64,000 bases of DNA from Frankiaceae bacterium (lineage in GTDB: Bacteria > Actinomycetota > Actinomycetes > JAFAQI01). The notes under the pieces were generated by a model. It searched no databases. It was given only the letters and a program-made list of their open reading frames with translations, and was not told the origin of the DNA. Below are positions 17,772-35,651 of the stretch, piece by piece. The DNA lies in contig JAFAZI010000047.1 of NCBI GenBank assembly GCA_019239875.1, positions 39,870 through 103,869 on the forward strand, given 5' to 3'. The stretch's first letter is position 1. Each line of letters starts with the position of its first letter. A program made the translations under genes and the position numbers.

Positions 17772-18056
17772 GGGGGAGCGGGGGCCTCTCTCGTGCTCAC
17801 CGCTTCCAGCGGTCAGCCACAACTGGCCGCCCGAATGGGCCGCTAGGTCACGTTGTGGTTACGCGCCACGTTATCCACAAGTGCAAGATCGACTCAAGGC
17901 ACGTCCGGCGCCGGATCCACGGCCACACGTGTCTGGCGGCGTACTGAATGGTGTCCGCCGGGTGACCAACCGGTGAAACCTGCCTTTGACCCGCGGATTC
18001 GACCCGAGCGAGGTCCTAGCGTTGACCCGAAGCCGCCCACCCGAGCAGGAGCTGTC

Positions 18057-19185: not shown

Positions 19186-19911
19186 TCACGCCACGTGCGC
19201 TCCCTTGCGCCGCCTTCCCAGTCGCAGGAACAGCGCGCCGCCGCCCAACAGCACACCCGCGACGCCAATGAGCGCCGCGAGATCGAGGCCGGTCATGGGC
19301 ATCGGGCCCTTAGGGCCTGCGTGGTGGAGCCCGGCCGACGTCGGTAACACGCCTCCGGTTGGCGTCGGGCTCGAGGAAGGCGTCGCCGACTTGGTCGGGC
19401 GCGACGTCTTCGTTGCCTTCACGGAAGGGATCGTCACGACGATCGGCTGCGGGTCCTTCGTGTGCTTGACCACGACGACCGGCGCGGCAGGCGGCGCGAC
19501 CACGACGTACGGCGCGCTGCCGTGCGACGGTGCGTATCCCGAGGCCGGAGCTGGGTCGAAGTGAACGGACAGGACGTGCCGCCCTACCGACATCGATGAG
19601 GTCGACCAGCTCCACCGATACCGGTAGTTGGCTCCCGAAGCAACCTTCGTCTCGCCGTCGTACAACGTGACGCTCCCCCATGCGGCTGCCGGCTCGAGGT
19701 CGGCGATCAACGTCAAGGTGGAGTTGGGAAGGTGAGCTCGGGTCGCGGTTGACTCGAGGTCGATGTGGACAGCGGAGGACTGCAACGCTGTGGGCGAAGG
19801 GCTCGGCGAAGCGGTGGCGGCTGCGGCAGTCGTCAGCTGGCCCAGGGCACCGGCGCTCGACGCAACGATCGCCACCAGCGCCAGCGACACCGATCCCGCG
19901 GTGAGTGACAT
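19186..19911 (-). CDS. small surface protein with Ig-like domain and C-terminal sorting-signal-like tail (MPMTG + hydrophobic + RRRKG)
   Basis: ATG 19911 (RBS GGGGGA) gives a signal peptide MSLTAGSVSLALVAIVASSAGALG; C-terminus ...PTPTGGVLPTSAGLHHAGPKGPMPMTGLDLAALIGVAGVLLGGGALFLRLGRRRKGAHVA. Track ORF has a spurious 88-codon N-extension overlapping the upstream gene. Confidence 0.6.
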   Translation of the reverse strand: MSLTAGSVSLALVAIVASSAGALGQLTTAAAATASPSPSPTALQSSAVHIDLESTATRAHLPNSTLTLIADLEPAAAWGSVTLYDGETKVASGANYRYRWSWSTSSMSVGRHVLSVHFDPAPASGYAPSHGSAPYVVVAPPAAPVVVVKHTKDPQPIVVTIPSVKATKTSRPTKSATPSSSPTPTGGVLPTSAGLHHAGPKGPMPMTGLDLAALIGVAGVLLGGGALFLRLGRRRKGAHVA

Positions 19912-19982
19912 CGATCCCCCGAGACGGCGAGGCCACCGGAGCGCATGTGCTCGCCCCAGCGGCCTCGCCTTGTCCGAATCGG

Positions 19983-21170
19983 CTACTTCTTGATCTTCAC
20001 TGCCTTGGTCGTCGCCTTGCCGGACTTGTAGCCCGCCCGCTTGGCGGTGACCTTGCAGCTCAGCTTGCCGCCCTTGTCCTTCTTCGTGGGCGTGTAGGTC
20101 TTCTGCTTGGCGCCCTTGATCTTCTTGCCGTCGAGGTACCACTTGAACTTGAACTTCGTCGGCTTGGGAGACCACTTACCGGGCTTCACCTTCTCCGGCT
20201 CTCCGACCTTGTGCTTGCCTTTCAGCTTCGGATGCTTGAGGTTGTTGATCCTGGCTTTGGTCACCGTGACGGTCTTCGTCGACGAGCTCGACGAAGCGAA
20301 CGAGCTGTCAGTTGGCGTGAAGGTCGCCTTGATGACGTTCGATCCGGCTGGCAGCTTCTGGACGAGCGTTGCGACGCCGCTGCCGTTGACCGCCACGGCA
20401 GCACCCAGGTTGCCGCCGTTGTCGCTGAACTGAACGGAGCCGGCCGGGTGCGTGCCGCCGCCACCCGTCGTCGCCGTGAGCGTCACCTCGTCAGCGGTCG
20501 TCGCGGTTGTCCGGGACACGGCCAGCGCGGTCGTGGTAGCCGTCGGTGACGCACCTGGGTAGGTCTGGGTCCAGGTCCCACCGGTGACCGTGCCGTCGCC
20601 GTCCTTGGTGATGCCGCTGACCACGAAGTCCAGCGACTGATAGGTGCCGTCAGTCGACGTCTTGACGCGCAGTTGGAATGCATCGACGTAGCCAGGCGTC
20701 GACGTGTCCGTGTTGGGGAAGTCGCCCATGTACGTCGCGATGGTTTCGTCGGTGGCGCCACCGGTCACGACCGGACCGTCAGCGCTCGACACCACGGCCG
20801 GCACGCCTGCGCCTGCCGGGACCGGATAGGTCGTCGACAGGCTGATCTGCTCACCGCTCCACGCGCCTGCGGCGACACCGGTCTTGGGTGTGTAGAGATA
20901 CGCCGTGGCCTTCGTGTGCGCCGTGTCGGCGGTTGAACCGACCATGTACTTGGCGATCGGCGCGTCGGTGACGCTGCCGGTGGTGACCTGGTTACCGGAC
21001 GCGTCGTAAAGCGCGAGCGTCCCGACCTCGTTGGTGTCCTTGGTTCCGCTCGCCTCCCACGGCGGCGGTGTGTCCGCCCCGGCTTGGGAGGCGAGGATCG
21101 TTGCCGCGCCTGAGAAGAGCAGGGTCGCCGCTCCCATCGAGGCGAACGACCGAGTGAGTCGGCGATTCAT
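19983..21170 (-). CDS. secreted surface protein, paralog C (shared two-Trp N-terminal domain; Ig-like middle; Lys-rich C-terminal tail)
   Basis: Signal peptide MNRRLTRSFASMGAATLLFSGAATILASQAGA; conserved N-domain EVGTLALYDASGNQVTTGSVTD...GAWSGEQ...FQLRVKT...GGTWTQTYPG; C-terminus KHPKLKGKHKVGEPEKVKPGKWSPKPTKFKFKWYLDGKKIKGAKQK... Confidence 0.65.
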   Translation of the reverse strand: MNRRLTRSFASMGAATLLFSGAATILASQAGADTPPPWEASGTKDTNEVGTLALYDASGNQVTTGSVTDAPIAKYMVGSTADTAHTKATAYLYTPKTGVAAGAWSGEQISLSTTYPVPAGAGVPAVVSSADGPVVTGGATDETIATYMGDFPNTDTSTPGYVDAFQLRVKTSTDGTYQSLDFVVSGITKDGDGTVTGGTWTQTYPGASPTATTTALAVSRTTATTADEVTLTATTGGGGTHPAGSVQFSDNGGNLGAAVAVNGSGVATLVQKLPAGSNVIKATFTPTDSSFASSSSSTKTVTVTKARINNLKHPKLKGKHKVGEPEKVKPGKWSPKPTKFKFKWYLDGKKIKGAKQKTYTPTKKDKGGKLSCKVTAKRAGYKSGKATTKAVKIKK

Positions 21171-21294
21171 CGGATCCCTTTCCGGGTGATGTCGAGGGGA
21201 CGATCCGCCCCGACGTTAGAGCGATCAGCAGGCATGTCCTGCCGGACCGTCGATGTGTTCATGTCGGCTTCATGCGGCGTGCACGACGTGGTCG

Positions 21295-22161
21295 TCACGA
21301 CCGCCGCCGGAGTGCAAGACCGCCGCCACCGAGGGCGAGCATGGCGATGATGAGGACGACCGTCAGATTGCGGCCGGTGTGCGAGGACGAGGCACTGGCG
21401 TCACTGACCGGCCGAGCTCCAGCCGGCGCCTGCGGCGAGTCAGCAGTGGACGAGCTGTCTCCGTTCCCAGAGCTGGCGGTCGACCCACCAGATGTGGAGG
21501 GTCGCGGCGAGCCGGCCGCGACCGCCGCGTCGTACTTTCGTTGCGCCTGGCGGAACTTCTTCTTCGGAAGGGTGGCGGTCTCGATGGATACCGCCGATCC
21601 GGAACCCTTGCAGTCATCCGCACCGGGATGCAGCTGGGTCCACCTGCCGTCGCTGACCGAGAAGTACGACGCGTTGTACGTCGATCGGAGGGCGGGGGCG
21701 CCTGGCGCGCCCAGATACATCCGGACCTGGAAGACGCCTTCGGCCGCGAGCGGGAAGTCCTTCAGATATGTCGCAAATGACTCGTCGAGGATCGTACCCG
21801 CGGCCATCGGATGGTCAGCATCCGAGAACCGCGCCGAGCCCGTGAGCTGCTGCGGGCTCCACTCCGGCGGCGGCACGTTGGGGCGCGGTTGGAACGCGTA
21901 CAACGTCGCGGTCCCACCGACCCGATAGCCCTTTGGTGCGGACGCCGCGCCGATCGCGCGGTAGATCGCCGGCTTGGTCGCCAACGAACCGCTGGTGACC
22001 TGATTGCCCTGGCCGTCACAGAGAGTGAGCGGGCCGGCGACTTGCGGGTCGGGCGGCGGCGTCACGCCGGCAATCGCTGGCGCCGCCAACCCCACCGCAA
22101 TCCCCACACTGACCGCGACAGTCGCAGCTCCCGATGAGAGGCCTCGGACCAACAACCTCAC
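21295..22161 (-). CDS. secreted surface protein, paralog B (two-Trp N-terminal domain; C-terminal TM anchor + RRRS)
   Basis: GTG 22161 (RBS AAGGAGA, overlaps upstream stop as GTGA); signal peptide VRLLVRGLSSGAATVAVSVGIAVGLAAPAIA; AGPLTLCDGQGNQVTSGSLATKP...EWSPQQ...FQVRMYL...DGRWTQLHPG; C-terminus SSSHTGRNLTVVLIIAMLALGGGGLALRRRS. Confidence 0.6.
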   Translation of the reverse strand: MRLLVRGLSSGAATVAVSVGIAVGLAAPAIAGVTPPPDPQVAGPLTLCDGQGNQVTSGSLATKPAIYRAIGAASAPKGYRVGGTATLYAFQPRPNVPPPEWSPQQLTGSARFSDADHPMAAGTILDESFATYLKDFPLAAEGVFQVRMYLGAPGAPALRSTYNASYFSVSDGRWTQLHPGADDCKGSGSAVSIETATLPKKKFRQAQRKYDAAVAAGSPRPSTSGGSTASSGNGDSSSTADSPQAPAGARPVSDASASSSHTGRNLTVVLIIAMLALGGGGLALRRRS

Positions 22162-23243
22162 GCGGGATCTCCTTGCGGCTGGGTCGCGGGTGGCGGGTCG
22201 ATCCGGTGCCGCCCCGCCTGGCGGCGATGTTTCCGCCACCAGTACCTGAAAGCCAACCCGACGATGAGGAGCAGGAGGATAAGGAGCAAGAGCCAAGGGA
22301 TGGCCAAGAAATGAACGCTGGATGAAGTGGGCTTCAAGCCGGTGTCGACCGCTCCCTGCAACCCTTCCGGGTTGACCGTGACCTTGGCGTTCATCAGCAG
22401 CTCTGGGTACACGTTCGGCACGGTGACGACAACGGGATACGACGCACCAGGCAGCAACGGGGGAATGCTCGCGACCGCCCCGCTGCTGACGTCCTCCCCG
22501 AACAGTCCGTGGACTGACACGGATTGCGGACCGCCGAAGACGACGTTCCCGCCGTTGTGGACCACGTAGCTGACCTTCACGTCACCGCGCGCGAACGGAT
22601 TGACCGGTCCGTCGTACGACGCCGTCAAGTTCCGGATGTCGACTCGAGGGTGGATCGGACCGGTCACGCGGAACACCGCGCGGACGGCGATGCGCTGCAG
22701 GAACTTCTCGTTCTGCGTGCTGCCCTGCCCGAACCGGCCTTTGACCTTGCCGGCGAGCGAGACCACGACGCCTCCGACATGGTCGCCCGGTGGCGCGTTC
22801 ATCGGGATGTGGACGTGTACCGGCAGGACGTTGACCGACCGCGGCTGCAGCGTGAGCACCCCACGACCGTGCGGGGTCCCCACCGACATCCAGGCACCGG
22901 CGTCCCGTCGCTTGACGTCGGGCAGCGGGAAGGAGATCGCGCCTCTGGTGTCAGGGACCGCGTCGACGGTGTACGTCGTCACCCGCAGCGGACGGTGGGA
23001 GTAGTTGGTGATCGCGACGTGGTCGGTCGTCTGGCCGCCGGGCGTGGTGTTGAACGTCAGGTACGGCCGGCCGTCGGGCCCCTTCGCACTCGACGGTGCG
23101 GCGCCGAAGGTCGCGTTCTTCACCTTGGTCGGTGACGAAGAAAAACGATGCCCCACGGGTCCGGCCGACGCTGCCGTCAGGCCTCCCATGAGCATCGTCA
23201 GTACGACGAGCGCAACCGATCGTCTGTAGTGCTTCAGTCCCAT
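22158..23243 (-). CDS. cell-surface protein with signal peptide and C-terminal TM anchor (possible CscA/DUF916-DUF3324-like)
   Basis: 361 aa; MGLKHYRRSVALVVLTMLMGGLTAASA signal; C-terminus LAIPWLLLLILLLLIVGLAFRYWWRKHRRQ. Size, architecture and neighbourhood (WxL-like paralogs, sorting-signal protein) resemble Gram-positive csc clusters. The family name is inferred, not demonstrated. Confidence 0.4.
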   Translation of the reverse strand: MGLKHYRRSVALVVLTMLMGGLTAASAGPVGHRFSSSPTKVKNATFGAAPSSAKGPDGRPYLTFNTTPGGQTTDHVAITNYSHRPLRVTTYTVDAVPDTRGAISFPLPDVKRRDAGAWMSVGTPHGRGVLTLQPRSVNVLPVHVHIPMNAPPGDHVGGVVVSLAGKVKGRFGQGSTQNEKFLQRIAVRAVFRVTGPIHPRVDIRNLTASYDGPVNPFARGDVKVSYVVHNGGNVVFGGPQSVSVHGLFGEDVSSGAVASIPPLLPGASYPVVVTVPNVYPELLMNAKVTVNPEGLQGAVDTGLKPTSSSVHFLAIPWLLLLILLLLIVGLAFRYWWRKHRRQAGRHRIDPPPATQPQGDPA

Positions 23244-23323
23244 CTACTCCCCTGAGAACAGCCCGGTGGGCCGGGACTGATGCCCCGGCCCACCGGTGTG
23301 AACTATCTAGTGCGCGACCACGA

Positions 23324-25186
23324 TCAGTTCCCGTCTGAGACGGTGAAGACGATCGTGCCCTTGTAGGTGCCAGCAGCCGTCGACGTCGGTGCGTTGAGCG
23401 TCAGCTTGCCGTCGTAGGTAGCGGTACCGACGCCGTTCGCCGAACCCTGCAGCACGTTGTGGGCTCCGTTGCCGAGACCCGCGTTGCCGGTGTCGGACGG
23501 TGACACACCAGCAGCGGCCGTGTTGTCGGTCGCCGTGATCGAGCCAGGCTCGCCGGTGTAGCTGTTGACCGGAGTCGACCCGTCGGGGCAAGTGCCGGTC
23601 GACGGCGCGAGCGCCGTCAGGCCGACGTTCTCACCGTTGATCGACGTGTACGCACCGCTCGGCGGCGTCGGGCCACCAGACTGGAGCGACAGCGCACTGG
23701 CCGCAGCCTGCGCGATGAAGCCCGTGTTGACACCACTCGTGTCGGTCACCGTGATGCACTTGAACGTCTTGTTCCCGGTCCACAGGGTGCCGGTTCCGTT
23801 CAATGCGAGGTTGCCCAGGTCGAGCGGGTTCGCGTCCGTGTACGGGGTGCTGATGATCAGCGTTCCGGTCGGGATGCTTGCCGTGATCGTCTGGGTGTCC
23901 GTGCACCCCGGACCGCCCGCCGCCGCCTCGCTGGTGCAGACACCACCGGCGAGGACCGTGGTGAACGAGTTCGGCGCAGAGGCCGAGGCCTCGTAGTTCG
24001 CCGGGTTCGTCGGAGTGAAGTGAGCAACCACGGTGTGCGAACCGGCCGAGAAGCCACCGGTGATGGTCGCCGAGTAGTGACCGCTGCCGTCAACAGCAAC
24101 ACTCGAGCCGCCGTCGACTGGGAGTGCGGAACCCTTGTCCGTGAACGACACCGAGCCGTTCGGCGTGCCCGACCCTGAGGTCACGGCACCCGAGAGCGTT
24201 GCGGTTCCACCGGTCTGGGTGTTACCCGTGATCGTCAATGAGGTGTTGGTCGGGGTGGCCGGCGGGTTCACCGTCTGAGAGAGGGCGTTCGAGGTCGAGC
24301 CCGTGTAGTACGGGAAGACGGTGTTCGCGCTCGGGGTGTAGACGGCGGTGATGCTGTACGGCGAGCCCGACGCGGTCAGAGCTGACGTTGAGACCGACGC
24401 GTGGCCGGTGCCGTTCAGCGACTGTGCCGCACCAAGGTTGGCAGCGCCGTTCTTGAACTGCACGGTGCCGTCGGTCGGGTTGGTGCCGTCCGCGCCCGTC
24501 ACCTGCGTGGTGAAGGTCACCGAGTTGCCCTGGTTGGACGGGTTCGCCGACGAGGTCGGGGTCGAGGTGGTGGTCGCGATCGGCGAGCCGTAAACCTCGG
24601 TCCAGTCACCGCCGGTGACTGCGCCGCTGCCGTCCTTGGTGATGTTGCTGACCATGATGTCCGCGGCCCAGTACGTCCCCGTCGTGCCGGTCTTGACGCG
24701 GATCTGGTAGAGCCCGGCGTACCCGTCAGTGGTGCTGGTGTCGGTGTTCGGGAAGTCGCCGATGTACGTGGACAGCGGCAGGTCGGATCCAGCCCCGGTG
24801 ACGACCGGGTGGGTGCCCAGACCGTTCACCGGCGCGGGGGCGCTGGTGTTCGGGTAAGTGGTCGAGGCCGCTGCCTGCTCACCGCCCCAGGCACCTGGCG
24901 CGACACCAATCTGCGGCGTGTAGAAGAACTGCGTGGCCTTGGTGTGGCCGGCGTCAGTAGTAGAGGCCGCGTAGTAGGCCGCGAGCGGTCCGTCGGTGAC
25001 GTGACCGTGCGTGACTTGCTGGCCGCTCGAGTTGTAGAGGGTCAGCGTTCCGACCTGATTCGAGTCGGGGGTCGACTGGTACGGTGGCGTCGCTGCGTTG
25101 GCAGCACCCGCTCCCACCAGCAGCAACGCCCCGGTCGTGGCCAGGGTTGCCGCCCCGGCTGTGACCGCTGCGAAGCGGATCTTCAT
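23324..25186 (-). CDS. secreted surface protein, paralog A (two-Trp N-terminal domain + long Thr/Gly/Ser-rich Ig-like repeats)
   Basis: 620 aa; strong RBS AAGGGAGAA before ATG 25186; signal MKIRFAAVTAGAATLATTGALLLVGAGAANA; QVGTLTLYNSSGQQVTHGHVTD...GAWGGEQ...YQIRVKT...GGDWTEVY; C-terminal ...AGTYKGTIVFTVSDGN. Confidence 0.65.
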   Translation of the reverse strand: MKIRFAAVTAGAATLATTGALLLVGAGAANAATPPYQSTPDSNQVGTLTLYNSSGQQVTHGHVTDGPLAAYYAASTTDAGHTKATQFFYTPQIGVAPGAWGGEQAAASTTYPNTSAPAPVNGLGTHPVVTGAGSDLPLSTYIGDFPNTDTSTTDGYAGLYQIRVKTGTTGTYWAADIMVSNITKDGSGAVTGGDWTEVYGSPIATTTSTPTSSANPSNQGNSVTFTTQVTGADGTNPTDGTVQFKNGAANLGAAQSLNGTGHASVSTSALTASGSPYSITAVYTPSANTVFPYYTGSTSNALSQTVNPPATPTNTSLTITGNTQTGGTATLSGAVTSGSGTPNGSVSFTDKGSALPVDGGSSVAVDGSGHYSATITGGFSAGSHTVVAHFTPTNPANYEASASAPNSFTTVLAGGVCTSEAAAGGPGCTDTQTITASIPTGTLIISTPYTDANPLDLGNLALNGTGTLWTGNKTFKCITVTDTSGVNTGFIAQAAASALSLQSGGPTPPSGAYTSINGENVGLTALAPSTGTCPDGSTPVNSYTGEPGSITATDNTAAAGVSPSDTGNAGLGNGAHNVLQGSANGVGTATYDGKLTLNAPTSTAAGTYKGTIVFTVSDGN

Positions 25187-25321: not shown

Positions 25322-26500
25322 TCAGCAGCTGGTCGGGTTCAAGCCACAGTCCTTGTACGCGGGGTCCGCACCTGCCGCCGCGACGAGCGCTTGGCCCGGA
25401 GCGGTCTTGAAGTACGGGTTCGCGCCCGAGAACAAGGTCTGGATCATGTTCTTCGTGCCGCCCGGCTCGAAGATGGTCGACGAGGACAGGTCGCTCTGCT
25501 TGAACACCACGAACAGGCCGCGCGTGTCGATGTACGCGGATCCACCGGCCGGCGGAGCGCCGCTGAGGATCTTGATGCCGGCGGCCAACGCTGCGCCGCC
25601 GGGGTACGGCGTCGCAGGGTTGTGGAAGTAGCTGCTGTCGTAGAGGTTGAGCCGGCTTCCGGAGAACGGCGCGATGGCGTCCGCCGGCGTACCGAAGTTG
25701 CCACTCGTGATTGCGGACGGGTCGTTCTCCTCAGCGGTCTGCACGCAGCTGCCGAGGGTGATCGTGCCGCCGCCGGCGGTCTGCAGGTCGGTGATGAAGG
25801 TGCTGCGCGTACCCGAACCCGACTGCGGAATGATCGGCACGATGTTCGTGGCCGACGTGCCGCCGATGTTGGAGTCGTTCCACTTCCGGTAGCCCGCGTC
25901 GCACTGGTAGACGTGGAAGAGCTGCGCTGCCGTCAGCGGTACCGCGTTCGACCCCGTCTTGAGCGCTGCGAGGCGAAGGTCCTCGGTGCCGAGCCGCACG
26001 ACATGAAGCCCACCGAAACCAGCCGTGCCGGCGGTGGTCTCCTCGGCCGCAGTTGGGAGCCGCGAAGCGCGGACGAAGTTGATCTGTCCATCAGGGAACG
26101 CGGCGGTCGGCGCGTCATTCAGCAGCGCCGCGATGCCCGCACCGGAGCCGTTGGGACGCTGCACCGGGTTGGTGCCGGACCGCAGCACGATCGTGGGGTT
26201 GAGAGGTGCGAGGGAGGCGTTAGTGCTGCCGTTCAGGTAGCCCGCCCGAGCGTTGGCATCCGGCGTGGCATCGAAGCTCACCAGCTTGTTGATGGCGCCG
26301 CCGCCATTGAAGCCGAGGTCGCCCGTAGCGTCACCGTCGGCGCCGAAGTCGACGAGGTACTGCACCGTGTCGGACCCGACGCCCACTGCGTCGGCGCCCG
26401 AAGGTGCGTAGTCCGCGTGGGCCGGGGAGGCGAGTGAGACGCTCACCGCTCCCGCGACCGCGACTGCGAGACCGACTCGCAGCGAATTCTTCATGCGCAT
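25322..26500 (-). CDS. secreted PstS-family phosphate-binding protein (second copy)
   Basis: Signal peptide MRMKNSLRVGLAVAVAGAVSVSLASPAHA; type-2 periplasmic-binding fold with the phosphate-binding SGSGTR motif (IIPQSGSGTRSTFITDL). Confidence 0.65.
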   Translation of the reverse strand: MRMKNSLRVGLAVAVAGAVSVSLASPAHADYAPSGADAVGVGSDTVQYLVDFGADGDATGDLGFNGGGAINKLVSFDATPDANARAGYLNGSTNASLAPLNPTIVLRSGTNPVQRPNGSGAGIAALLNDAPTAAFPDGQINFVRASRLPTAAEETTAGTAGFGGLHVVRLGTEDLRLAALKTGSNAVPLTAAQLFHVYQCDAGYRKWNDSNIGGTSATNIVPIIPQSGSGTRSTFITDLQTAGGGTITLGSCVQTAEENDPSAITSGNFGTPADAIAPFSGSRLNLYDSSYFHNPATPYPGGAALAAGIKILSGAPPAGGSAYIDTRGLFVVFKQSDLSSSTIFEPGGTKNMIQTLFSGANPYFKTAPGQALVAAAGADPAYKDCGLNPTSC

Positions 26501-26565: not shown

Positions 26566-26587
26566 GCTAGTGCGTAGCGAATGAACC
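26566..26587 (-). promoter_or_regulatory. candidate PHO box (PhoP direct repeats GTTCACCGGGG/GTTCATTCGCT)
   Basis: Minus strand reads ...GACAAGTTCACCGGGGGTTCATTCGCTACGC... about 66-88 nt upstream of the PstS-like ATG: two 11-nt direct-repeat units with the actinobacterial PhoP core GTTCAyy. Confidence 0.5.
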
Positions 26588-26674
26588 CCCGGTGAACTTG
26601 TCGTGGCGGACACATCGAAACCGGACAAGGACGTCGAACCGGCGGACCGCTCCCGCACGCCCGGAAGGACGGCG

Positions 26675-27658
26675 TCACATCAGATTTGGGAGCAGCCTGA
26701 ACACGTTGCTGCTGACCACCCAGACCAACGCGAGAATCACGGGCGCTCCCGCAAGCCACGCCTGCCACAGACCCCACCGGCTGCTGGCCCAGACCGTTGC
26801 CCCGCCCACGATCAGCAACGCCTGAAGCCAGAGCACGAGCGACTCGAGACCGGATGTGTCGGAGTGCATCGCGGTGGCGGATGGCGCGATCACCGTCGGC
26901 CGGCCGGCTGGCGCGAGCAACGCCTTCTCCTTGAGCGCCGCATCCACGAAGACTTCGTGACTCGGTGCCCACCCGGCCCGCCAGCCGGAACCTTGGGATG
27001 AGACCAGGGTCAAGCGGCCGCCGCCATCCGGCACCGGCGGCGGCAGGGGGTCCCCGTTGTGCCTGACGTTTATGACGCTGTAGTGGAAGGTGCCCTGCTG
27101 CGTAGTCGCCGTGATGATGTCGCCCGGATGCAACGATCCGATGTCCTTGAAGGGTGCACCGAAGCTCACGCTTCGGCCCATGAGAACCGACCACCCAAGC
27201 TGACCCGGCAGCGGAGTGTTCTGCTGATGACCGGGACCGTCCCGAAGCACGGTCGACGTCGTGCCTTCCACGACGACCGCCCGGTTGAGCCCAGCCGCAG
27301 GCATGCTGATCACAGCTAATGGCGTGCCCGGTTTGATAGCACCCCCGAGCGGCGCGACCTCCTGCGCGAGCGAGAAGCGCAGCTGCGAGTAGAGCCTGTG
27401 CTGGGCGCTGCGCTCCTGAATACCGCTGAGGAACACGCCGTAGATCAGCAGCCAGACCGCGGTCACGCTCAGCATGAACAGCACGCTGACCGTGAGCGAA
27501 ACACCCGGCGAGGCCGGCGGGAGCGGTGGCGCCTCGCGGGCGGCGGCGAACCGAGTCCGGACCCGTGCGAGTCGCGACGCCGCGGCGGGCTCCGCTCGCC
27601 GCGCGCCGGACCGGGCAGGGGCCGGTCGACCAGGTTTTGCGAGGTCCGTAGCGGTCAT
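26675..27658 (-). CDS. sortase-fold membrane protein lacking catalytic Cys and His (class-E-sortase-like pseudo-sortase)
   Basis: N-terminal TM (VSLTVSVLFMLSVTAVWLLIYGVFL). The region IKPGTPLAVISMPAAGLNRAVVVEGTTSTVLRDGPGHQQNTPLPGQLGWSVLMGRSVSFGAPFKDIGSLHPGDIITATTQQGTFHYSV...RLTLVSSQGSG is collinear with the sortase-E consensus (IPxIGv..VveGt...LxkGpGHypxTxlPGqxGNsviaGHRTTyGAPFxxLdxLxxGDxI...TyxY...LTLvTCHP). The GHRTT His is replaced by Arg and the TLxTC Cys by Ser; the protein contains no Cys at all. Two extra C-terminal TM segments. ATG overlaps the upstream stop (ATGA). Confidence 0.6.
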   Translation of the reverse strand: MTATDLAKPGRPAPARSGARRAEPAAASRLARVRTRFAAAREAPPLPPASPGVSLTVSVLFMLSVTAVWLLIYGVFLSGIQERSAQHRLYSQLRFSLAQEVAPLGGAIKPGTPLAVISMPAAGLNRAVVVEGTTSTVLRDGPGHQQNTPLPGQLGWSVLMGRSVSFGAPFKDIGSLHPGDIITATTQQGTFHYSVINVRHNGDPLPPPVPDGGGRLTLVSSQGSGWRAGWAPSHEVFVDAALKEKALLAPAGRPTVIAPSATAMHSDTSGLESLVLWLQALLIVGGATVWASSRWGLWQAWLAGAPVILALVWVVSSNVFRLLPNLM

Positions 27659-30381
27659 GTCCTGCGTCGCTGGCGCACGTACCTGGTGATCGCCGGCGCC
27701 AACAAGCCGCTGAGGAGCGCAAGAGCGAGGAGGATGGGGAGCGCGACGCCGGCAAGCTTCGAGGAGCTCGCGACCGTGTTGCCCAGCGACGCCGGCGCTG
27801 GGGAGGCGACAGCAGGAGGGCTTGCTGGATCGCTGGGGCCTGGGGTGGCGGCGCCGTCGACTGCCGGCACAGTCGGAGCAGCCGACGACGGGGGCGACGA
27901 AGAGCTGCCCGTTCCATCTGGACCAGTGCCACCGTTGTTGCCGTCGTTCCCCTGGTTGTCGGCCTTCGACGGGACGAGCGATGGCACGTCACCACGCTGA
28001 GCTCGGACCGCGCTCGCCGCGCGCGTCGTGTACGCGACGAGCCGACCCAGTCCGTTCGACTTCGTCATCGGCAGATACCCAGGTGGCAAATTTCCTGGGT
28101 CGAAGCCCTGCGTCTGGCCGGGGCCGGCCGCGAAGTCGAGCAGCTTTGAGTAGTCCGTAGCGGCCGAGCTCGCAAGACCTTTGGTCGCAACGGTGGTGTA
28201 GACGATCATCGTGCCTGGATATGCGCCCTTCGCGGATGGTGCCTTGCGGAGCCGCTTCGAGTCGACGGGCCAGGTACCCGTCGTCATGTCCGGCTTCGCC
28301 GTGTCGGCAGCCGCCCGCATCGACGCCATCGTCGGCCGGACGAACGTGCGTCCGGCCAGGCTCGAGAAGTCGGACTTCGCGGCCGAGGTGGTCTGTGCCT
28401 CGAGTGACGCCATGCTGAGCCGATAGCGCTCAGCATCAGGAATGGTCGTCACGCCGAGCATGAACCGCGAGCCCAGCTGCTGGCGTCCGATGGCCACCAG
28501 CCGTTCACCCGAGCTCTGTCCCTGCAGCGGTTGGTAGCAGACGGTCTGCGAGTTCGCGATGGCGAACTGCATGGCCAGTGCGATCTGGCTCAGTCGCTGG
28601 ACCGGCGCTGCCACCAGCGGCAGGTATGGGACAGGGGTGTTGTAGAGGCAGTCGTTGAGTCCCGGCTGGTAGATGTCGGACGGAATGTATGTGTCGAGCA
28701 GCGGCCACGTGTTCACGGGGAGCTGGATGCGCTTGTAGGCCTTGTTGACCACCATCCCCCACGGGTCAGGTTTGCCGTCCAGCCATGCGCGAGCCTCGGG
28801 GTCGGCGTTGATGTAGGAGGTGAGGGCGTACATCACGTCTGACTGGCTGGAGAGGTTGAGGATCGTCGCACCGACTTGCGAGTCGGTGGTGACGCCGGGA
28901 TTGAGCGCCTCGAACTCTGGGTCGCGAGTGATGTTCAGCGGGTTCTTGGCAAGGGCCTTGTCCTTGTTCTGGATCTCGCTGATGGCCGGGTAGGACTCAG
29001 TCATCAGCTTCGCCAGCAACCGCGGATCGAGCTGGAGCTTGGTGACGGGGTCACCGTGAGCGTCGTCGATGTCGAAGGTGATCGCGAACCCGCTGACAGC
29101 GGTCGGCGCGTTGACCGTCGGGAACGGGAATCCCCCGGCCTGCGGCTGACTGGTGAAGGCTGCGTCGATCGAGCCCGACATCAGCTGAGTCCGAGCCTGC
29201 GGCTCGCCCACCTGAACGTGCTTGAAGTTGAACAGCGACTTCGTCAGGCAGAACTTCGGGGACCACTGTTGTGTGGCTTGCGTCATCAGCTCGGAGCCGT
29301 ACACGGGAACGGCCGCGCCCGCACCCACCACGTCGCAGACACTCGGCGTCTGCGCGAAGCTGAGTGGGACGGACAGCCGGTTCCGCCAGTTCGACGCGGC
29401 CCACCACAGCGCACCGCTCACCGTGGCGTCCTCGTGACCGTTCCCGTCACCAACCTCACCCGGTGCGAAGTGACCCTTCTTCACGCACTCGGCGGTGGCT
29501 TGCTCGATGTCGGGCGCTGGCGGCTTGTCGTCGTCCGGCAGCCCTTCGGCTGCGGGATCGCAGCTGATGCCCATGATCGGCACGGCGACCAGGCTGCACA
29601 CAACTCTTGCCGAGCAGCCCAATGACGTGTTCGTGTCCGCGGTCCACATGTCGAACTTCGTCGAACCCTGGCCGTTGGTCTGCGTGATGCCGTAGGTCTC
29701 GTTGCTCGGCATCGCCTGGTTGCTGTCACCGGTTGCCTCGGGCGCGGTGCCCGCGCAGCCGTTCGGCCCGCCGTAGTACTTGGTACCGCCAAGCGCGATG
29801 AAGGGGACCCAGTACTCCTCAGGCGCCGCGCCGAAACACTCCTCGGGCCTTGTTGTAGGCGCTCCGTACAGGGCGGATCGCTGTGCGGCCGAGGCGTACT
29901 TGTCCAGCCGCCACGGCGGGTAGGCCTGGTCGTTGCTCGCGTAGTTGGAATCGGACTGGAACCGCTCGGTGGTCGCGTTGGTCCAACAGGTCTGCGGCGA
30001 GAGTCGGTCGGCCTTGGGAGCGCGCTTCGAATCCAGGCCACGACACTCGAGCAGCACCATCGGATATTCCTCCTGCAGACCCAGGGAGGAGTTGATGTTT
30101 CCGACCAGACCGCCCGTCGGGTGCGCGCCGCTCCAGGACACGTCCACCTCTTGCCGATCGCGCAATCCCACCGTCTGAGCGACATGCAAGGAGACCTTGC
30201 GCTTGTCGACGACCGAGGTCGTGCCGTCCTTGGTTACGGTGCGGACAGCTGTGTGCTTGACGGTGACAGGCTTCAGATCGGCGTGCGATCGCCCGGGCGT
30301 TCCCGACGCGACACCTGTCGCAGCGGCGCCGACCGCCACCGCCGTCGCGGTGATAGCGGCCCAACGTTTTGTCAGTTTCAT
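27655..30381 (-). CDS. 909-aa secreted orphan protein, Cys-rich N-terminal region, C-terminal Ser/Pro-rich linker + TM anchor
   Basis: ATG 30381 overlaps the pstS stop (ATGA); signal peptide MKLTKRWAAITATAVAVGAAATGVASG; many paired Cys; C-terminus ...SSSPPSSAAPTVPAVDGAATPGPSDPASPPAVASPAPASLGNTVASSSKLAGVALPILLALALLSGLLAPAITRYVRQRRRT. No recognisable catalytic motif. Track ORF carries a 139-codon Arg-rich artefactual extension. Confidence 0.55.
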   Translation of the reverse strand: MKLTKRWAAITATAVAVGAAATGVASGTPGRSHADLKPVTVKHTAVRTVTKDGTTSVVDKRKVSLHVAQTVGLRDRQEVDVSWSGAHPTGGLVGNINSSLGLQEEYPMVLLECRGLDSKRAPKADRLSPQTCWTNATTERFQSDSNYASNDQAYPPWRLDKYASAAQRSALYGAPTTRPEECFGAAPEEYWVPFIALGGTKYYGGPNGCAGTAPEATGDSNQAMPSNETYGITQTNGQGSTKFDMWTADTNTSLGCSARVVCSLVAVPIMGISCDPAAEGLPDDDKPPAPDIEQATAECVKKGHFAPGEVGDGNGHEDATVSGALWWAASNWRNRLSVPLSFAQTPSVCDVVGAGAAVPVYGSELMTQATQQWSPKFCLTKSLFNFKHVQVGEPQARTQLMSGSIDAAFTSQPQAGGFPFPTVNAPTAVSGFAITFDIDDAHGDPVTKLQLDPRLLAKLMTESYPAISEIQNKDKALAKNPLNITRDPEFEALNPGVTTDSQVGATILNLSSQSDVMYALTSYINADPEARAWLDGKPDPWGMVVNKAYKRIQLPVNTWPLLDTYIPSDIYQPGLNDCLYNTPVPYLPLVAAPVQRLSQIALAMQFAIANSQTVCYQPLQGQSSGERLVAIGRQQLGSRFMLGVTTIPDAERYRLSMASLEAQTTSAAKSDFSSLAGRTFVRPTMASMRAAADTAKPDMTTGTWPVDSKRLRKAPSAKGAYPGTMIVYTTVATKGLASSAATDYSKLLDFAAGPGQTQGFDPGNLPPGYLPMTKSNGLGRLVAYTTRAASAVRAQRGDVPSLVPSKADNQGNDGNNGGTGPDGTGSSSSPPSSAAPTVPAVDGAATPGPSDPASPPAVASPAPASLGNTVASSSKLAGVALPILLALALLSGLLAPAITRYVRQRRRT

Positions 30382-32057
30382 ATCGAGTCCTTGGGCGGCG
30401 CGGTCCGCAGCCGGCGCGCCAGCATCGGCGGCCCAATCAGAATCAGCAGGAACAGAATCCCCGCCAGTGGCCCGAGCACGTCGGTGTTCTGCGAGGTTGG
30501 GATCTCGGTCGGTTGGGCCACGATGTTGGAGGTGTCCGTCGTCGTTCCACCCGGCGTGGTGTTGGTCGGGTTGGTCGGGTCGGCCACCTGACCCGGGTTC
30601 GTCGGATCGGTCTGCCCGCCGCCCCCTCCGGGAGTGGTCGGATTCGCGCCGCCGCCAGGATTGGTCGGGTTGGCACCACCACCGCCGCCGCCGGTGCCGC
30701 CGCCGTTTCCACCTCCGCCATTGCCGCCGTGGCCGCCGCCACCACTCGTCCCCGGGTCGCCGGCGTCGGTGCACGGGCCGGCACCAGCTTTGTCGCACGC
30801 CGGCGGCTTCGGTGCGATCTGCGCCAGGTGGTTGCCCTTCGGGTCACCCGGCACGAACGTGGGGTTGTGGCAGCTGTTGACGTTGCGCTTGGTGAGGTCA
30901 ACGCCGGAGTCGGCGGTCTTGAGCTCCGCAATCTGTTTGAAACCTGCCTGGACCAGGTTGACCGGGAGCGGTGAGTAGCCGATCGGGCCCATCTCGGTCT
31001 GCCCCGTGCAGATGGAGTAGAAGTCGAAGTCAGCGAGTGTCTGCCGTTTCGCCGTCGTCATGGTCTTGTCGTTCGACGCGATCGGAATGACTTGATAGGA
31101 GTACGACGACAGCGGGTAGGTGCGGACGTCCTTGTCGACGTACACGTTGTCGAGGTCCTGGAGCAGGTAGTCCTTCGAGTTCTTGTCGTAGTTGATCTTT
31201 GCCTTGAGCAGTGCGACGGCGACGTTGTACTGCGTGGGAAGCGTGAAGTAACCGGCCTTGTTCTCGATCTTCGCGACCGGGTAGTCCTTGCCCAAGGCGT
31301 AGGAGTACTCGTCGTAGCCGATGGCACCGTTGGCGGCCTTGGACGTGACGAAGTTCATCACGCCGTCGGAGCCATTCTGGGCGACCGCGTTCTTCACCTT
31401 CGATGCCGGAAAATACTCGGTGAGCTCGTCCAGGCCGTTGCCGTTCTGGTCCTTGTTGATAGAGGTCCACTCGTTCGGGAACTCGGTCGCGAGATAGCGC
31501 GTGAACTGTGCCGTCGAGCCCGAGCCCTCGGAGTGAACAACCGGAATGATCGGGATCGAGGGGAACTTGCGCCCGTTGTTGTCGGCGGTGATCTGTGGCG
31601 CGTTCCAGTTCGTGATCTTGCCGGTGAAGATTCCCGCCAACGTGGCCCCGGAGAGCCGGAGGTTGCGAACCAGCTGGCCCGCGACCTGGAGCTGGTACGG
31701 GAATGACGTACCGCCTGCGACGATCGGTAGATACGCGTACCCGCGTCCATCTGGTGAGTCGTCCGCGTTGGTGGCCGGATCCCGACCTTGGAACCCGATG
31801 TCGGTCACTGCGAAGTCGTTCTGCCGATTCGCGAAGTCCTTGCGGCCCTGCGCCGAACCGCTCGACGTGAAGACGACCTGCAGACCTTGTGATTGGACGT
31901 CCGCGATCCACTGGTTCACGGCGTTGGCACTCCAGCTCGAACCCGAGCCGGCGATCAACGCATGGCTGCCAGCCGCCTGGGCGGGTGTCGTCGCGCCGAT
32001 CGCCAGGCCGGCGACGGCGAGCGCCGCCAGGGCACGCCAGAAGGGGTTTCGCGTCAT
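30378..32057 (-). CDS. pstS: phosphate ABC transporter substrate-binding protein with C-terminal Gly-rich linker and TM anchor
   Basis: Non-lipoprotein signal peptide MTRNPFWRALAALAVAGLAIGATTPAQA|AGS; PstS fold with IIPVVHSEGSGSTAQFTRYL (SGSGT motif); C-terminus GGGGHGGNGGGGNGGGTGGGGGGANPTNPGGGANPTTPGGGGG...LGPLAGILFLLILIGPPMLARRLRTAPPKDSI; ATG overlaps the pstA stop (ATGA). Confidence 0.8.
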   Translation of the reverse strand: MTRNPFWRALAALAVAGLAIGATTPAQAAGSHALIAGSGSSWSANAVNQWIADVQSQGLQVVFTSSGSAQGRKDFANRQNDFAVTDIGFQGRDPATNADDSPDGRGYAYLPIVAGGTSFPYQLQVAGQLVRNLRLSGATLAGIFTGKITNWNAPQITADNNGRKFPSIPIIPVVHSEGSGSTAQFTRYLATEFPNEWTSINKDQNGNGLDELTEYFPASKVKNAVAQNGSDGVMNFVTSKAANGAIGYDEYSYALGKDYPVAKIENKAGYFTLPTQYNVAVALLKAKINYDKNSKDYLLQDLDNVYVDKDVRTYPLSSYSYQVIPIASNDKTMTTAKRQTLADFDFYSICTGQTEMGPIGYSPLPVNLVQAGFKQIAELKTADSGVDLTKRNVNSCHNPTFVPGDPKGNHLAQIAPKPPACDKAGAGPCTDAGDPGTSGGGGHGGNGGGGNGGGTGGGGGGANPTNPGGGANPTTPGGGGGQTDPTNPGQVADPTNPTNTTPGGTTTDTSNIVAQPTEIPTSQNTDVLGPLAGILFLLILIGPPMLARRLRTAPPKDSI

Positions 32058-33169
32058 CGCTTGGTCTTCTCCCGAGAGAGCAGTCGAGCCGCGATGAACA
32101 GGACGACGACGAGCACGAGCAGGACGCTGGCAGCGCCAAAACCTCGAGTGATGTACGTCGGTTCACCGCTGCGGACAGAGCTGAAGATGAACAACGGAAG
32201 CGAGTTCATCGGATTCTTGAGGGGGTTCGTGTTGAAGAAGGTGGAGGCGCCCGAGGTGATCAGAACGGGTGCGGTTTCACCGACAGCTCGGGCGAGGCCG
32301 AGGATCACTGCAGTCGCGAGTCCGGACCGCGCGGTCGGAAGCACGACGCGCCAGACCGTTGCCCATCGGCTGGCGCCAAGCGCAAGACTCGCTTCACGGA
32401 GACCGCCCGCCACCACCCGCAGCGAGACATCCGCCGAGCGGGCGATGATCGGCAGCATCATGATCGACAGCGCCATCGCCGCGCAGAAGCCGTTGCGCTG
32501 AAAGCCGAGCCCGAGCTGCAACACCGTGTAGATGAACAGCCCAGCGAGGATGTCCGGCAGCGCTGTCATCGCCTCCACGACGGTTCGCACCACCGTCGAG
32601 AACCGGCCACCGATCTCCACCATGTAGATCGCGGTTCCAATGCCGAGTGGCAAAGAGACTGCGGTGGCGATCGCAAGCTCGATCAGCGACCCCGCCACCG
32701 CATGCGTGATGCCACCGTGGGTGAGGGTCTCCGTCGGACCGACCCCCGCCATGTCATGGGTCCAGAAGTTGCCGTGGATCCATGCACCCTCGCCCTTGAC
32801 GAGGGTGTAGATCGCTACCGAGAGGACCGCGAAGAACACCACGCCTGCTGCGCCTGCGACGGCGGCGCCCCAGAGCCGGTCGACCACCACCGGGCGAGGG
32901 TTGCCGAAGCTGCTGACCAGGCCGTACACAGCAAGGAACGCGGCGTACCAGCAGAAGAGGAAGCCAACCTTCCCGGACAGCGGCAGCAGCTGGAAGTACA
33001 CGAGCCAGGTGAGCGCCAGCGAGCCGACGAAAGCGGCAACCAGTGATGCGATGTCGTCCTGCGTCAACCGGCCGACGGTGCGGGGCTGGTCGTCTGCACC
33101 ATCCGGATGGCTCGGGTTGACGCCCGTGCCCGATGTACCCGGCATCGGCGGCGGCGAGAGCAGTGTCAT
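32054..33169 (-). CDS. pstA: phosphate ABC transporter permease PstA
   Basis: 371 aa, 6 TM; ABC permease EAA-like region (LGASRWATVWRVVLPTARSGLATAVILGLARAVGETAPVL). Confidence 0.85.
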   Translation of the reverse strand: MTLLSPPPMPGTSGTGVNPSHPDGADDQPRTVGRLTQDDIASLVAAFVGSLALTWLVYFQLLPLSGKVGFLFCWYAAFLAVYGLVSSFGNPRPVVVDRLWGAAVAGAAGVVFFAVLSVAIYTLVKGEGAWIHGNFWTHDMAGVGPTETLTHGGITHAVAGSLIELAIATAVSLPLGIGTAIYMVEIGGRFSTVVRTVVEAMTALPDILAGLFIYTVLQLGLGFQRNGFCAAMALSIMMLPIIARSADVSLRVVAGGLREASLALGASRWATVWRVVLPTARSGLATAVILGLARAVGETAPVLITSGASTFFNTNPLKNPMNSLPLFIFSSVRSGEPTYITRGFGAASVLLVLVVVLFIAARLLSREKTKR

Positions 33170-33176
33170 GACGGCA

Positions 33177-34196
33177 TCACGCGTCCGTCTGCGCGCCGCT
33201 GCGGCTGCGGTTGACGATTATCGCGGCAACGGTGTTCACGGCGATCGTCATGACGAACAGGACGAAGCCGGCCGCGAGCAGAGCTGACAGCTGCGACGAA
33301 GACGCGTCGTTGAACTGGTTCGCGATCAGCGACGCGACGGTGATGCCACCGATCTCGAGCGGCTTGAACTTCAGGTCGTACTCCGGCGAGATGATCAGGA
33401 GCACGGCCACCGTCTCGCCCAGCGCACGGCCGAGCGCAAGCATCGTCCCGCCGATGATGCCGCCGCGACCGAACGGCAGCACGACGGACCGGATCATCCC
33501 CCAGCGCGTCGAGCCGAGGGCGTAGGCAGCCTCACGTTCCCCGATCGGCGCCTGCGCGAAGACGCCACGCATGACAGCGCAGGCCATCGGGATGACCATC
33601 ATCGAGACGATCAACGCCGCGATGAACGGCGAACTGACGTAGTTGTGCGCCGAGAAGGCCGCGGCCCGCGGGTCCGTGTCGACCTTCAGGAACGGCACCC
33701 AACCGAAGTAGGAGTTGATCCAGCGGGCGACGTACAGCGCATGCGGTGAGATCAGCAGCAAGCCCCACAGGCCATAGATGATGCTCGGCACCGCAGCCAT
33801 CAGGTCGACGAGGGCGACCAGCGTCCCCTTGAGCCAGTTCGGCGCGTACTCGCTGATGTAGACGGCGGTGCCGAGAGCAAGCGGGAACGAGATCGCCAGC
33901 GCGATCACGGCGATCTCGATCGTGCCGACGACGACACCTGAGATCCCCAGCAGGTTCTGCTCGGGGTTCCACACCGCCCGGGTGAAGAAACCCAGCCCGT
34001 AGTTGTGGAGCGTCGGGATCAGCTGATACCCGAGGAACAGCCCGATGGCACCGGTGATGACGAGTACGACGGCACCAACCCCTGTGGCGCTCACCTGAAA
34101 GACCCGGTCGGAGCCTCCGATGCCGGAGCCGAGCGAACGAGGTTTGTCGTCGTCCGGCAGAGGTGACGCCGGCGAGACGTCGGCTACTGCGGTCAT
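33177..34196 (-). CDS. pstC: phosphate ABC transporter permease PstC
   Basis: 339 aa; (YALGSTRWGMIRSVVLPFGRGGIIGGTMLALGRALGETVAVLLI). Confidence 0.85.
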   Translation of the reverse strand: MTAVADVSPASPLPDDDKPRSLGSGIGGSDRVFQVSATGVGAVVLVITGAIGLFLGYQLIPTLHNYGLGFFTRAVWNPEQNLLGISGVVVGTIEIAVIALAISFPLALGTAVYISEYAPNWLKGTLVALVDLMAAVPSIIYGLWGLLLISPHALYVARWINSYFGWVPFLKVDTDPRAAAFSAHNYVSSPFIAALIVSMMVIPMACAVMRGVFAQAPIGEREAAYALGSTRWGMIRSVVLPFGRGGIIGGTMLALGRALGETVAVLLIISPEYDLKFKPLEIGGITVASLIANQFNDASSSQLSALLAAGFVLFVMTIAVNTVAAIIVNRSRSGAQTDA

Positions 34197-35618: not shown

Positions 35619-35651
35619 GCAGGCCGAACGGCAGATGAGCGAAAGATGAAC
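35619..35651 (-). promoter_or_regulatory. candidate PHO box (three 11-nt direct-repeat units) upstream of the DUF1508-pstBCAS operon
   Basis: Minus strand TTGTTGTTCATCTTTC-GCTCATCTGCC-GTTCGGCCTGC, about 86 nt upstream of GTG 35533, in the divergent intergenic region shared with the alpha/beta hydrolase gene. Confidence 0.4.

Follow-up and report, generated by a model that had tools for sequence, protein, structure and literature searches.

What is left for a sortase-like protein to do once it has lost the residues with which sortases work? This question is raised by an open reading frame (ORF) on the minus strand of a 64,000-nucleotide stretch of DNA (hereafter, the window) from a Frankiaceae bacterium (contig JAFAZI010000047.1 of assembly GCA_019239875.1), the product of which is designated pSrt (pseudo-sortase). 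Sortases are textbook Cys transpeptidases that staple proteins onto the walls of Gram-positive cells and serve as drug targets. For the Cys-less pSrt, the original prediction had offered two explanations, namely a catalytically dead sortase acting as a scaffold or chaperone for co-encoded, C-terminally anchored proteins, or a rare variant featuring a Ser nucleophile. The results presented below lead us to favor, as reasonably probable, the interpretation that pSrt is a non-catalytic, sortase-derived membrane subunit, partnering a large secreted protein encoded next to it (designated Giant) in a surface complex for phosphate acquisition that is probably controlled by the Pho regulon.

Fold and catalytic positions of pSrt

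The ORF was confirmed to be real, and its product comprises 327 amino acids (aa) with zero Cys residues. Its GC content at third codon positions (GC3) is 0.82, which is normal for genes of the window (67% GC). In the search with the Pfam Sortase hidden Markov model (HMM; PF04203, MEROPS family C60), pSrt achieved 44.3 bits (E-value 1.8e-11, cutoff 26.6), the match covering only positions 1–83 of the 125 profile positions. Class E (NF033747) was the best-scoring sortase class of NCBIfam, but, with 64.7 bits, pSrt did not reach the cutoff of 160. NCBI and JGI list family members under the names 'class E sortase', 'sortase' or 'sortase A'. Applying phmmer to the PDB, pSrt matched Corynebacterium diphtheriae SrtF, Streptomyces avermitilis SrtE and Streptomyces coelicolor SrtE1. 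A family profile, built from an alignment of 59 pSrt members, recovered the structure 5go6 (S. avermitilis SrtE) with an E-value of 2.2e-18 in an alignment spanning the entire barrel, confirming the collinearity with class E sortases that had been read from the sequence. Motifs of class D/E sortases retained in pSrt are VVEGT, GPGH, LPGQxG, FGAPF, GD.I, GDPLP and RLTLV(T/S). Judged by these alignments, the homology of pSrt to sortases is far above chance.

Structure prediction pointed in the same direction. The AlphaFold2 (AF2) model of pSrt, obtained with a mean per-residue confidence (pLDDT) of 90.6 and a predicted template modeling score (pTM) of 0.80, consists of an N-terminal transmembrane (TM) helix (aa 51–98), an eight-strand barrel (aa 113–242), and two C-terminal helices (aa 269–295 and 297–326), the latter corresponding to the two additional TM helices already noticed in the original prediction. 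Sortases only were found among the best 50 matches listed by Foldseek for this model, and the eight-stranded beta-barrel that characterizes the sortase superfamily is present in pSrt. The predicted topology runs from an Arg-rich cytoplasmic N-terminus through TM1 to the extracellular barrel and on to the TM2–TM3 hairpin, with the C-terminus placed outside.

The public record of an identical protein (P0001, 266 aa, 'class E sortase', from a Frankiaceae metagenome-assembled genome (MAG)) begins at Met62, i.e., within TM1. The start at position 27658, which overlaps the stop codon of the Giant gene, is conserved in other genomes, for example with a 4-nt overlap in Nocardioides conyzicola (L001), and restores the whole TM1 helix together with the Arg-rich cytoplasmic N-terminus (region 27476–27658, minus strand).

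The catalytic triad of sortases consists of His, Cys and Arg (His120/Cys184/Arg197 in SaSrtA and His251/Cys320/Arg329 in SrtE1; PMC5148588). The profile alignment to 5go6, as well as the pairwise alignments, placed R162 of pSrt at the position of the His and S221 at that of the Cys, in agreement with the substitutions proposed before. Furthermore, E235 occupies the Arg position, a third loss that had been overlooked. To describe the family, 202 distinct members (120 database matches and 82 proteins from genome loci) were aligned to the family HMM, and 144 further representatives of 50%-identity clusters, obtained from an exhaustive HMMER search, formed a second set. Position 221 is occupied by Ser (96), Ala (77), Thr (8), Gly (8), Val (7) or Leu (3) among the 202 members, and by Ala (99), Ser (29), Thr (6), Gly (4), Val (3), Leu (2) or Glu (1) among the 144 representatives. 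Combining both sets (346 proteins), Ala (176) precedes Ser (125), Thr (14), Gly (12), Val (10), Leu (5) and Glu (1), and Cys occurs in none of them. At position 162, Arg, Lys and His were counted 175, 18 and 9 times in the first set, and Arg and Lys 133 and 11 times in the second, so that 337 of 346 proteins carry Arg or Lys. The six to seven commonest residues listed for position 235 in the two sets are from among Thr, Ala, Val, Pro, Ser, Leu and Ile, Arg not being one of them. Entirely Cys-free proteins account for 112 of the 202 first-set members.

As read from these alignments, the sortase triad is lost in its entirety, in pSrt as well as throughout its family, and none of the catalytic features of the superfamily (Cys, His, Arg) is left in the window protein. 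Since roughly one in two family members carries Ala at position 221, the residue found there cannot be the catalytic nucleophile. Ser221 was accordingly rejected in this role, and the rare Ser-nucleophile variant that had been considered is refuted, Ser not being conserved among the orthologs. His at position 162 was kept only by nine copies from Dactylosporangium (loci L015, L017, L018, L020, L025, L028, L029, L043 and L072), which carry Ala at position 221.

The pSrt gene is under purifying selection and is not decaying, the ratio of nonsynonymous to synonymous substitution rates (dN/dS) ranging between 0.08 and 0.35 in 13 ortholog pairs. Relatives were detected in at least 525 species-representative genomes, and 764 clusters (50% identity) matched the pSrt profile at E ≤ 1e-30. 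With its triad lost, its fold kept and its sequence under purifying selection, pSrt corresponds to the operational definition of a pseudoenzyme.

Other residues are conserved in the family. Near-invariant are D239 (201 of 202 and 125 of 144 members), R199, T186, Q188, H144 and the C-terminal LLPN, and positions 157 (Ser versus Phe), 199 (Arg versus Pro) and 239 (Asp versus Trp) distinguish the family from SrtE. S157 is conserved to 84–95% (191 of 202 and 121 of 144). D239 lies four residues past the former catalytic Arg and, considering strand periodicity and the description of SrtE1 (PMC5148588), is expected to point to the same face of the strand. Also conserved are a Trp-rich loop after beta7 (GxGWRxGWAP), longer than that of SrtE, and Trp, Pro and Arg residues of TM2 and TM3. 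The beta6/beta7 loop 'GDPLP' of pSrt aligns with 'iDPVP' of SrtE. In SrtE1, the sorting signal is contacted by the beta3/beta4 and beta6/beta7 loops (PMC5148588).

Giant, the gene cluster and its probable link to phosphate

Gene order was compared at 83 loci in other genomes, the ORFs of which were matched to the window proteins (Table 1). The order PstB–PstC–PstA–PstS_TM–Giant–pSrt, PstS_TM being a PstS-like protein with a TM anchor, was found in essentially all loci with sufficient flank. Where the flank extends far enough upstream, the gene immediately preceding pSrt is nearly always that of Giant, and in the window the start codon of pSrt and the stop codon of Giant overlap in the tetranucleotide ATGA. 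Genes for PBP, Ig, WxLIP and P333 proteins usually follow pSrt, the block being inverted in Acidimicrobiia. Hosts of the cluster range from Frankiales to Acidimicrobiia and Solirubrobacterales; among them are Dactylosporangium, Kibdelosporangium, Actinosynnema, Nocardioides, Kribbella, Terrabacter, Jatrophihabitans, members of the Acidimicrobiia and a MAG of the Solirubrobacterales. In four loci (L001, from N. conyzicola, L048, L049 and L059), a second PstC–PstA–PstS_TM–Giant-like set is located directly after the first cluster.

The tie between Giant and pSrt goes beyond adjacency. Two proteins of a Microthrixaceae-type lineage, P0169 (1214 aa) and P0175 (1211 aa), represent natural fusions in which Giant, its TM helix, a cytoplasmic linker and pSrt follow one another in a single chain (contig of L079, a Microthrixaceae MAG). 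The topology of the fusions is consistent, the TM helix of Giant leading from outside to inside and TM1 of pSrt from inside to outside. As gene fusions, they are Rosetta-stone evidence for joint action of the two proteins. In two further long representatives (P0267 and P0309), the N-terminus resembles the tail and TM helix of an upstream surface protein; these may be additional fusions or miscalled starts.

Giant itself has 826 homologs, nearly all of them annotated as 'hypothetical' and occasionally as 'ABC-type phosphate transport system substrate-binding protein'. Twelve Cys residues are invariant among them. The window copy is without a Pfam match, and no similarity between Giant and the two PBP-like proteins was detected by BLASTP.

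Table 1. Positions of pSrt, its catalytic-site codons and the neighboring features in the window.
Feature	Position	Strand	Remarks
pSrt coding sequence	26675..27658	-	327 aa, zero Cys
TM1 of pSrt (aa 55–77, LTVSVLFMLSVTAVWLLIYGVFL)	27428..27496	-	first part of long helix aa 51–98
Sortase-fold beta-barrel (aa 110–245)	26924..27331	-	alignments, AF2 model and Foldseek
R162 codon (catalytic His position)	27173..27175	-	'vaGHr'/'AGHR' of sortases aligned with 'lmGRs'/'MGRS'
S221 codon (catalytic Cys position of TLxTC)	26996..26998	-	'LTLVTCE' aligned with 'LTLVSSQ'
E235 codon (catalytic Arg position, beta8)	26954..26956	-	'sHRLIVWAHL' aligned with 'sHEVFVDAAL'
D239 codon (beta8)	26942..26944	-	family-specific near-invariant Asp; Trp in SrtE
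TM2–TM3 C-terminal hairpin (aa 269–326)	26681..26854	-	conserved W277, W290, R294-W295, W301, P306, W313
C-terminal LLPNLM of pSrt	26678..26695	-	LLPN(L) near-invariant: P324 200/202, N325 198/202
Giant	27655..30372	-	secreted, 905 aa, C-terminal TM helix and basic tail RQRRRT
PstS-like protein (PstS_TM)	30378..32057	-	C-terminal TM anchor and basic tail; QPTEIPTS in window copy
PstA	32054-33169	-	Pst-type ABC transporter core
PstC	33177-34196	-	Pst-type ABC transporter core
PstB	34212-35114	-	Pst-type ABC transporter core
Three 11-nt GTTCA-type direct repeats GTTCATCTTTC GCTCATCTGCC GTTCGGCCTGC	35619..35651	-	upstream of the cluster's pstB end; read by eye
PHO-box-like pair of 11-nt direct repeats GTTCACCGGGG GTTCATTCGCT	26576..26597	-	between pSrt and PBP gene
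PBP_like_2 protein	25322..26500	-	secreted, 392 aa; follows pSrt in most loci
Co-conserved surface-protein block	19186..25186	-	Ig620, WxLIP/DUF916-like, P333, Ig395, MPMTG protein
Ig620, Ig-domain protein	23324-25186	-	620 aa
WxLIP/DUF916-like TM protein	22158-23243	-	WxLIP_PGBD 25.9 bits, below Pfam cutoff of 27.3
P333, TM-anchored	21295-22296	-	333 aa; 'SHTG', TM helix and RRRS tail
Ig395, Ig-domain protein	19983-21170	-	395 aa
Ig-domain protein with MPMTG, TM helix and RRRK sorting signal	19186-19911	-	Big_7 22.7 bits

The upstream half of the cluster encodes a Pst-type ATP-binding cassette (ABC) transporter, consisting of the permeases PstC and PstA and the ATPase PstB. PstC (239.5 bits, cutoff 196.45) and PstA (200.6 bits, cutoff 193.45) exceed the equivalog cutoffs of NCBIfam, and PstB remains slightly under its own (333.5 versus 343.2 bits), so that the transporter is of Pst type at equivalog level except for this marginal score. 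The PstS-like protein reached 172.9 bits against TIGR00975 (cutoff 205) and matched solved PstS structures with an E-value of 2e-22, including the motifs GxGxS(F/W), SxGS, xTD and GSG(T/S). Its sequence has a His aligned with the Arg of the PstS motif 'RSDGSGTT', most other binding motifs being kept; residue roles were assigned after E. coli PstS. It features a Gly/Thr/Pro-rich linker of about 180 aa and a TM anchor in place of a lipoprotein anchor. A small ORF upstream of pstB was considered as DUF1508-like, which was not supported.

Putative regulatory signals related to phosphate were also detected. In Streptomyces, PhoP binds 11-nt direct repeats with the core GTTCACC (PMC4415409). This consensus (14 core positions) was used to scan the 220 nt upstream of genes in the 83 loci. 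Allowing two mismatches at most, PHO-box-like repeats were found in front of the PBP gene in 32 of 58 cases and in front of PstC in 22 of 65, compared to 4.2% of random windows; allowing one mismatch at most, the values were 14 of 58 and 0.6%. As deduced from these repeats, the cluster probably belongs to the Pho regulon.

The C-termini of PstS_TM and Giant share a sorting-signal-like layout, in which a conserved short juxtamembrane stretch precedes a TM helix that is followed by a basic tail, without LPxTG or LAxTG. Homologs of PstS_TM carry P-T-[DE]-L-A-A about ten residues ahead of the TM helix, and the pattern T[DE][LI]A was present in 21 of 64 tails versus 0 of 767 windows of protein bodies. 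In Giant homologs, [LVA]G.T or (K/R)T was found about 12 residues ahead of the TM helix (29 of 75 tails versus 5% of body windows).

Downstream of pSrt, the block of surface proteins shows several kinds of C-terminal end. An N-terminal domain of about 200 aa is common to Ig620, Ig395 and P333 (BLASTP E-values 7e-61, 4e-12 and 4e-18), the C-termini of which differ, being '...GTYKGTIVFTVSD', a Lys-rich basic repeat, and 'SHTG' followed by a TM helix and an RRRS tail. The shared head may thus be displayed via three anchoring modes. No Pfam match to a WxL domain was obtained for the C-terminus of Ig620, and its suspected WxL likeness lies in the motif YxGT(I/L)T(W/F)T(L/V). MPMTG, a hydrophobic segment and RRRK at the end of the smallest Ig-domain protein form an unusual yet complete sorting signal, the only clear one in the window, where no signal composed of LAxTG, a TM helix and a basic tail was found; association with LAxTG substrates, as expected of class E sortases, is missing for pSrt within the window. 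Since no gene for a sortase with the TLxTC motif was found in the 64-kb window, the enzyme processing MPMTG has to be encoded elsewhere. P333 homologs in Dactylosporangium carry canonical LPRTG or LPKTG, and the same loci harbor the pSrt copies retaining His162; being restricted to a single genus, these cases do not constitute independent evidence. Wall-remodeling enzymes flank the cluster, namely a peptidoglycan hydrolase of the NlpC/P60 type that has a coiled-coil N-terminus (16623–17822, minus strand) and an SLT-type lytic transglycosylase (17853–19175, plus strand).

A proposed structural subunit and its alternatives

On the interpretation that we favor, pSrt descends from class E-like sortases, having retained the barrel, lost the His–Cys–Arg triad and gained a C-terminal two-helix membrane hairpin. 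It would neither cleave nor ligate, but would act as a membrane-embedded structural subunit that is co-produced with Giant. pSrt would bind Giant, and perhaps also the TM-anchored PstS-like protein, via the TM helices, which are conserved, and via the membrane-proximal barrel, in which the loops formerly contacting the substrate are conserved as well. In this way, it would keep the binding proteins assembled at the Pst-type ABC importer within a wall-spanning surface complex, which would probably be induced by phosphate limitation. For the dead pseudo-sortase of the original prediction, this means that inactivity is supported by the family-wide loss of the triad under purifying selection, while adjacency, overlap and fusion identify Giant as the candidate partner; the proposed action as scaffold or chaperone is a role that we infer from these genetic ties. 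A more far-reaching version can be offered only tentatively. According to it, pSrt would represent the first pseudo-sortase family, in which the barrel has turned into a non-cleaving receptor for C-terminally anchored proteins and nucleates a PhoP-controlled, wall-spanning phosphate-harvesting machine that combines the Pst-like importer with three PBP-like proteins and with wall proteins of Ig/WxLIP-like type, widespread in Actinomycetota and so far undescribed.

Several observations weigh against the favored interpretation. The two Giant–pSrt fusions belong to one lineage and share about 79% identity when compared in full (75% for the C-terminal construct); they are therefore counted as one fusion event. 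When the last 412 aa of P0169 were modeled with AF2, the tail and TM segment of Giant came out as one long helix of low confidence (pLDDT 61–74), and no strand was docked on, or added to, the barrel. Docking of the Giant tail in the old substrate groove is thus not supported by the model, and association via the conserved TM helices appears at least as likely. No match to the PDB was obtained with the Giant profile, and weak PBP_like_2 matches were limited to 9 of 44 homologs. The inference on PHO boxes leans on the Streptomyces consensus, and the juxtamembrane patterns were picked after viewing the data, so that their statistics are optimistic. Finally, a different active site could, in principle, be built from the hydroxyl group at position 220 (Thr or Ser in about 97%) in combination with D239, R199 and H144. 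Three rival explanations, including this last one, were nevertheless ranked below the structural-subunit interpretation.

The first of them regards pSrt as a decoy or retention factor for sorting signals. The dead barrel would bind LPxTG-like signals, such as those of P333-like proteins and the MPMTG protein, and by shielding them from the housekeeping sortase, or handing them over to it, would set their membrane or wall fate. True or degenerate signals do occur in the cluster (MPMTG and P333 'SHTG' in the window, LPRTG/LPKTG in Dactylosporangium), the substrate-contacting loops are conserved in pSrt, and all nine copies that retained His162, the sole ones of the family, adjoin P333 homologs with LPRTG or LPKTG. 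However, the tightest genetic tie, expressed in overlap, fusion and adjacency, concerns Giant, which has no LPxTG-like motif; many loci lack a nearby LPxTG protein; and the correlation between His and LPRTG stems from one genus and is not independent. We consider a decoy function unlikely.

A neo-functionalized enzyme appears doubtful. Here, the hydroxyl group of T/S220 with R/K162 and D239, or else H144, S157 and D239, would catalyze a non-thiol reaction, for instance a hydrolysis or a transfer, acting on the cell wall or on a protein. In support, position 220 is Thr or Ser in 191 of 202 members and in 144 of 144 representatives; D239, R199 and H144 are near-invariant and S157 is well conserved, some of these residues being specific to the family; and the GxGWRxGWAP loop after beta7 is both conserved and longer than in SrtE. 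These features lose weight, however, considering that Thr220 and the His of GPGH go back to true sortases, in which neither acts as a nucleophile, that 11 members carry Ala or Gly at position 220, that Arg, which is a poor general base, prevails at position 162, and that D239 is replaced in 19 of the 144 representatives. No characterized sortase with a Ser or Thr nucleophile is known.

It is more improbable still that pSrt serves as a cell-wall tether, the barrel keeping the site for the second substrate (lipid II or stem peptide) and anchoring the ABC complex non-covalently to the wall, or placing it at sites of wall synthesis. The conserved and enlarged beta7/beta8 loop would fit such a role, this region being considered, in sortases, to approach the nucleophile substrate, and other putative wall-binding modules are encoded in the cluster, including the WxLIP_PGBD-like domain. 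The WxLIP match is below the Pfam cutoff, though, and a tether would leave the specific coupling to Giant and the fusion unexplained. Lastly, a decaying pseudogene, or a frameshift, sequencing or assembly error hiding a TLxTC sortase, as might be suspected from the Cys-less sequence itself and from the public names 'class E sortase' and 'sortase A', is excluded by the recurrence of the same substitutions in more than 340 independent homologs, the intact ORF with high GC3, the low dN/dS values, the absence of TLxTC from every reading frame of the gene, and a score far below the cutoff in the class E HMM search.

Relation to known systems and significance

The closest known relatives are the class E sortases, represented by S. 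coelicolor SrtE1 (5CUW), S. avermitilis SrtE (5GO5/5GO6) and C. diphtheriae SrtF (5UUS). In common with pSrt, for which class E is the best NCBIfam class, they feature the motifs VxEGT, G(P/L)GH, (L)PGQxG, (F/Y)GAPF, DP(L/V)P and LTLVT, a domain that lies outside the cell and is anchored in the membrane at the N-terminus, and an actinobacterial host. In contrast, His, Cys and Arg are all replaced in pSrt, which also remains below the class E cutoff. Two conserved TM helices ending in LLPNL are added at its C-terminus, the Trp-rich beta7/beta8 loop is longer, beta8 carries the near-invariant Asp, and the gene resides in an operon of Pst-like ABC transporter and surface-protein genes and not beside LAxTG substrates. 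The class D sortase of Clostridium perfringens (4D70) shares 24–26% identity with pSrt, but represents a genuine Cys transpeptidase of Firmicute origin and has no C-terminal TM hairpin. Possessing the fold and the Pfam match of the superfamily, but neither its catalytic residues nor a sufficient class E score, pSrt should not be classified among the sortase enzymes.

Parallels in other systems are analogies only. Inactive rhomboids, i.e., iRhoms and derlins, maintain a membrane-protease fold under selection after loss of the catalytic residues and are thought to bind uncut, TM-anchored clients; their fold is unrelated to that of pSrt, and they belong to another kingdom. FtsEX–EnvC combines an ABC transporter with a partner containing a degenerate, non-catalytic LytM domain, and likewise represents an envelope pseudoenzyme coupled, genetically and physically, to an ABC transporter, the coupling of pSrt being known from its genes. 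FtsEX, however, does not work as an importer, and EnvC activates amidases, effectors that have no known counterpart in the case of pSrt.

The cluster's downstream half loosely resembles the Csc/WxL clusters of Firmicutes, which are operons of secreted proteins encoding DUF916/WxLIP, WxL-domain and small LPxTG proteins (Siezen et al. 2006, PMC1534035). Shared elements are surface proteins of Ig type, a TM protein resembling DUF916/WxLIP and a small protein that bears a signal of LPxTG type. The window differs in that no WxL domain was detected with Pfam and the WxLIP match is sub-threshold, and Csc clusters include neither an ABC transporter nor a sortase-like gene. In searches of the full-text literature, no account was found of a pseudo-sortase, of an inactive, degenerate or Cys-less sortase family, or of a sortase together with PstS or WxL, in accordance with the original statement that no characterized equivalent is known. 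A recent Actinoplanes study of its five sortase candidates does not cover the pSrt family.

A large, conserved and catalytically dead branch would place the sortases among those enzyme folds that have been reused as binding modules. Moreover, its recognition would correct a systematic mis-annotation as 'class E sortase' or 'sortase A', which inflates the sortase counts of Actinobacteria. Furthermore, pSrt marks an uncharacterized cluster of about 11 genes, present in at least 525 species, which comprises a second Pst-like importer and large surface proteins and is probably regulated by phosphate. Cultured hosts are available in the genera Actinosynnema, Kibdelosporangium, Dactylosporangium, Nocardioides and Kribbella. 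The cluster is relevant to the way in which soil and freshwater Actinobacteria may scavenge phosphorus through their thick cell wall.

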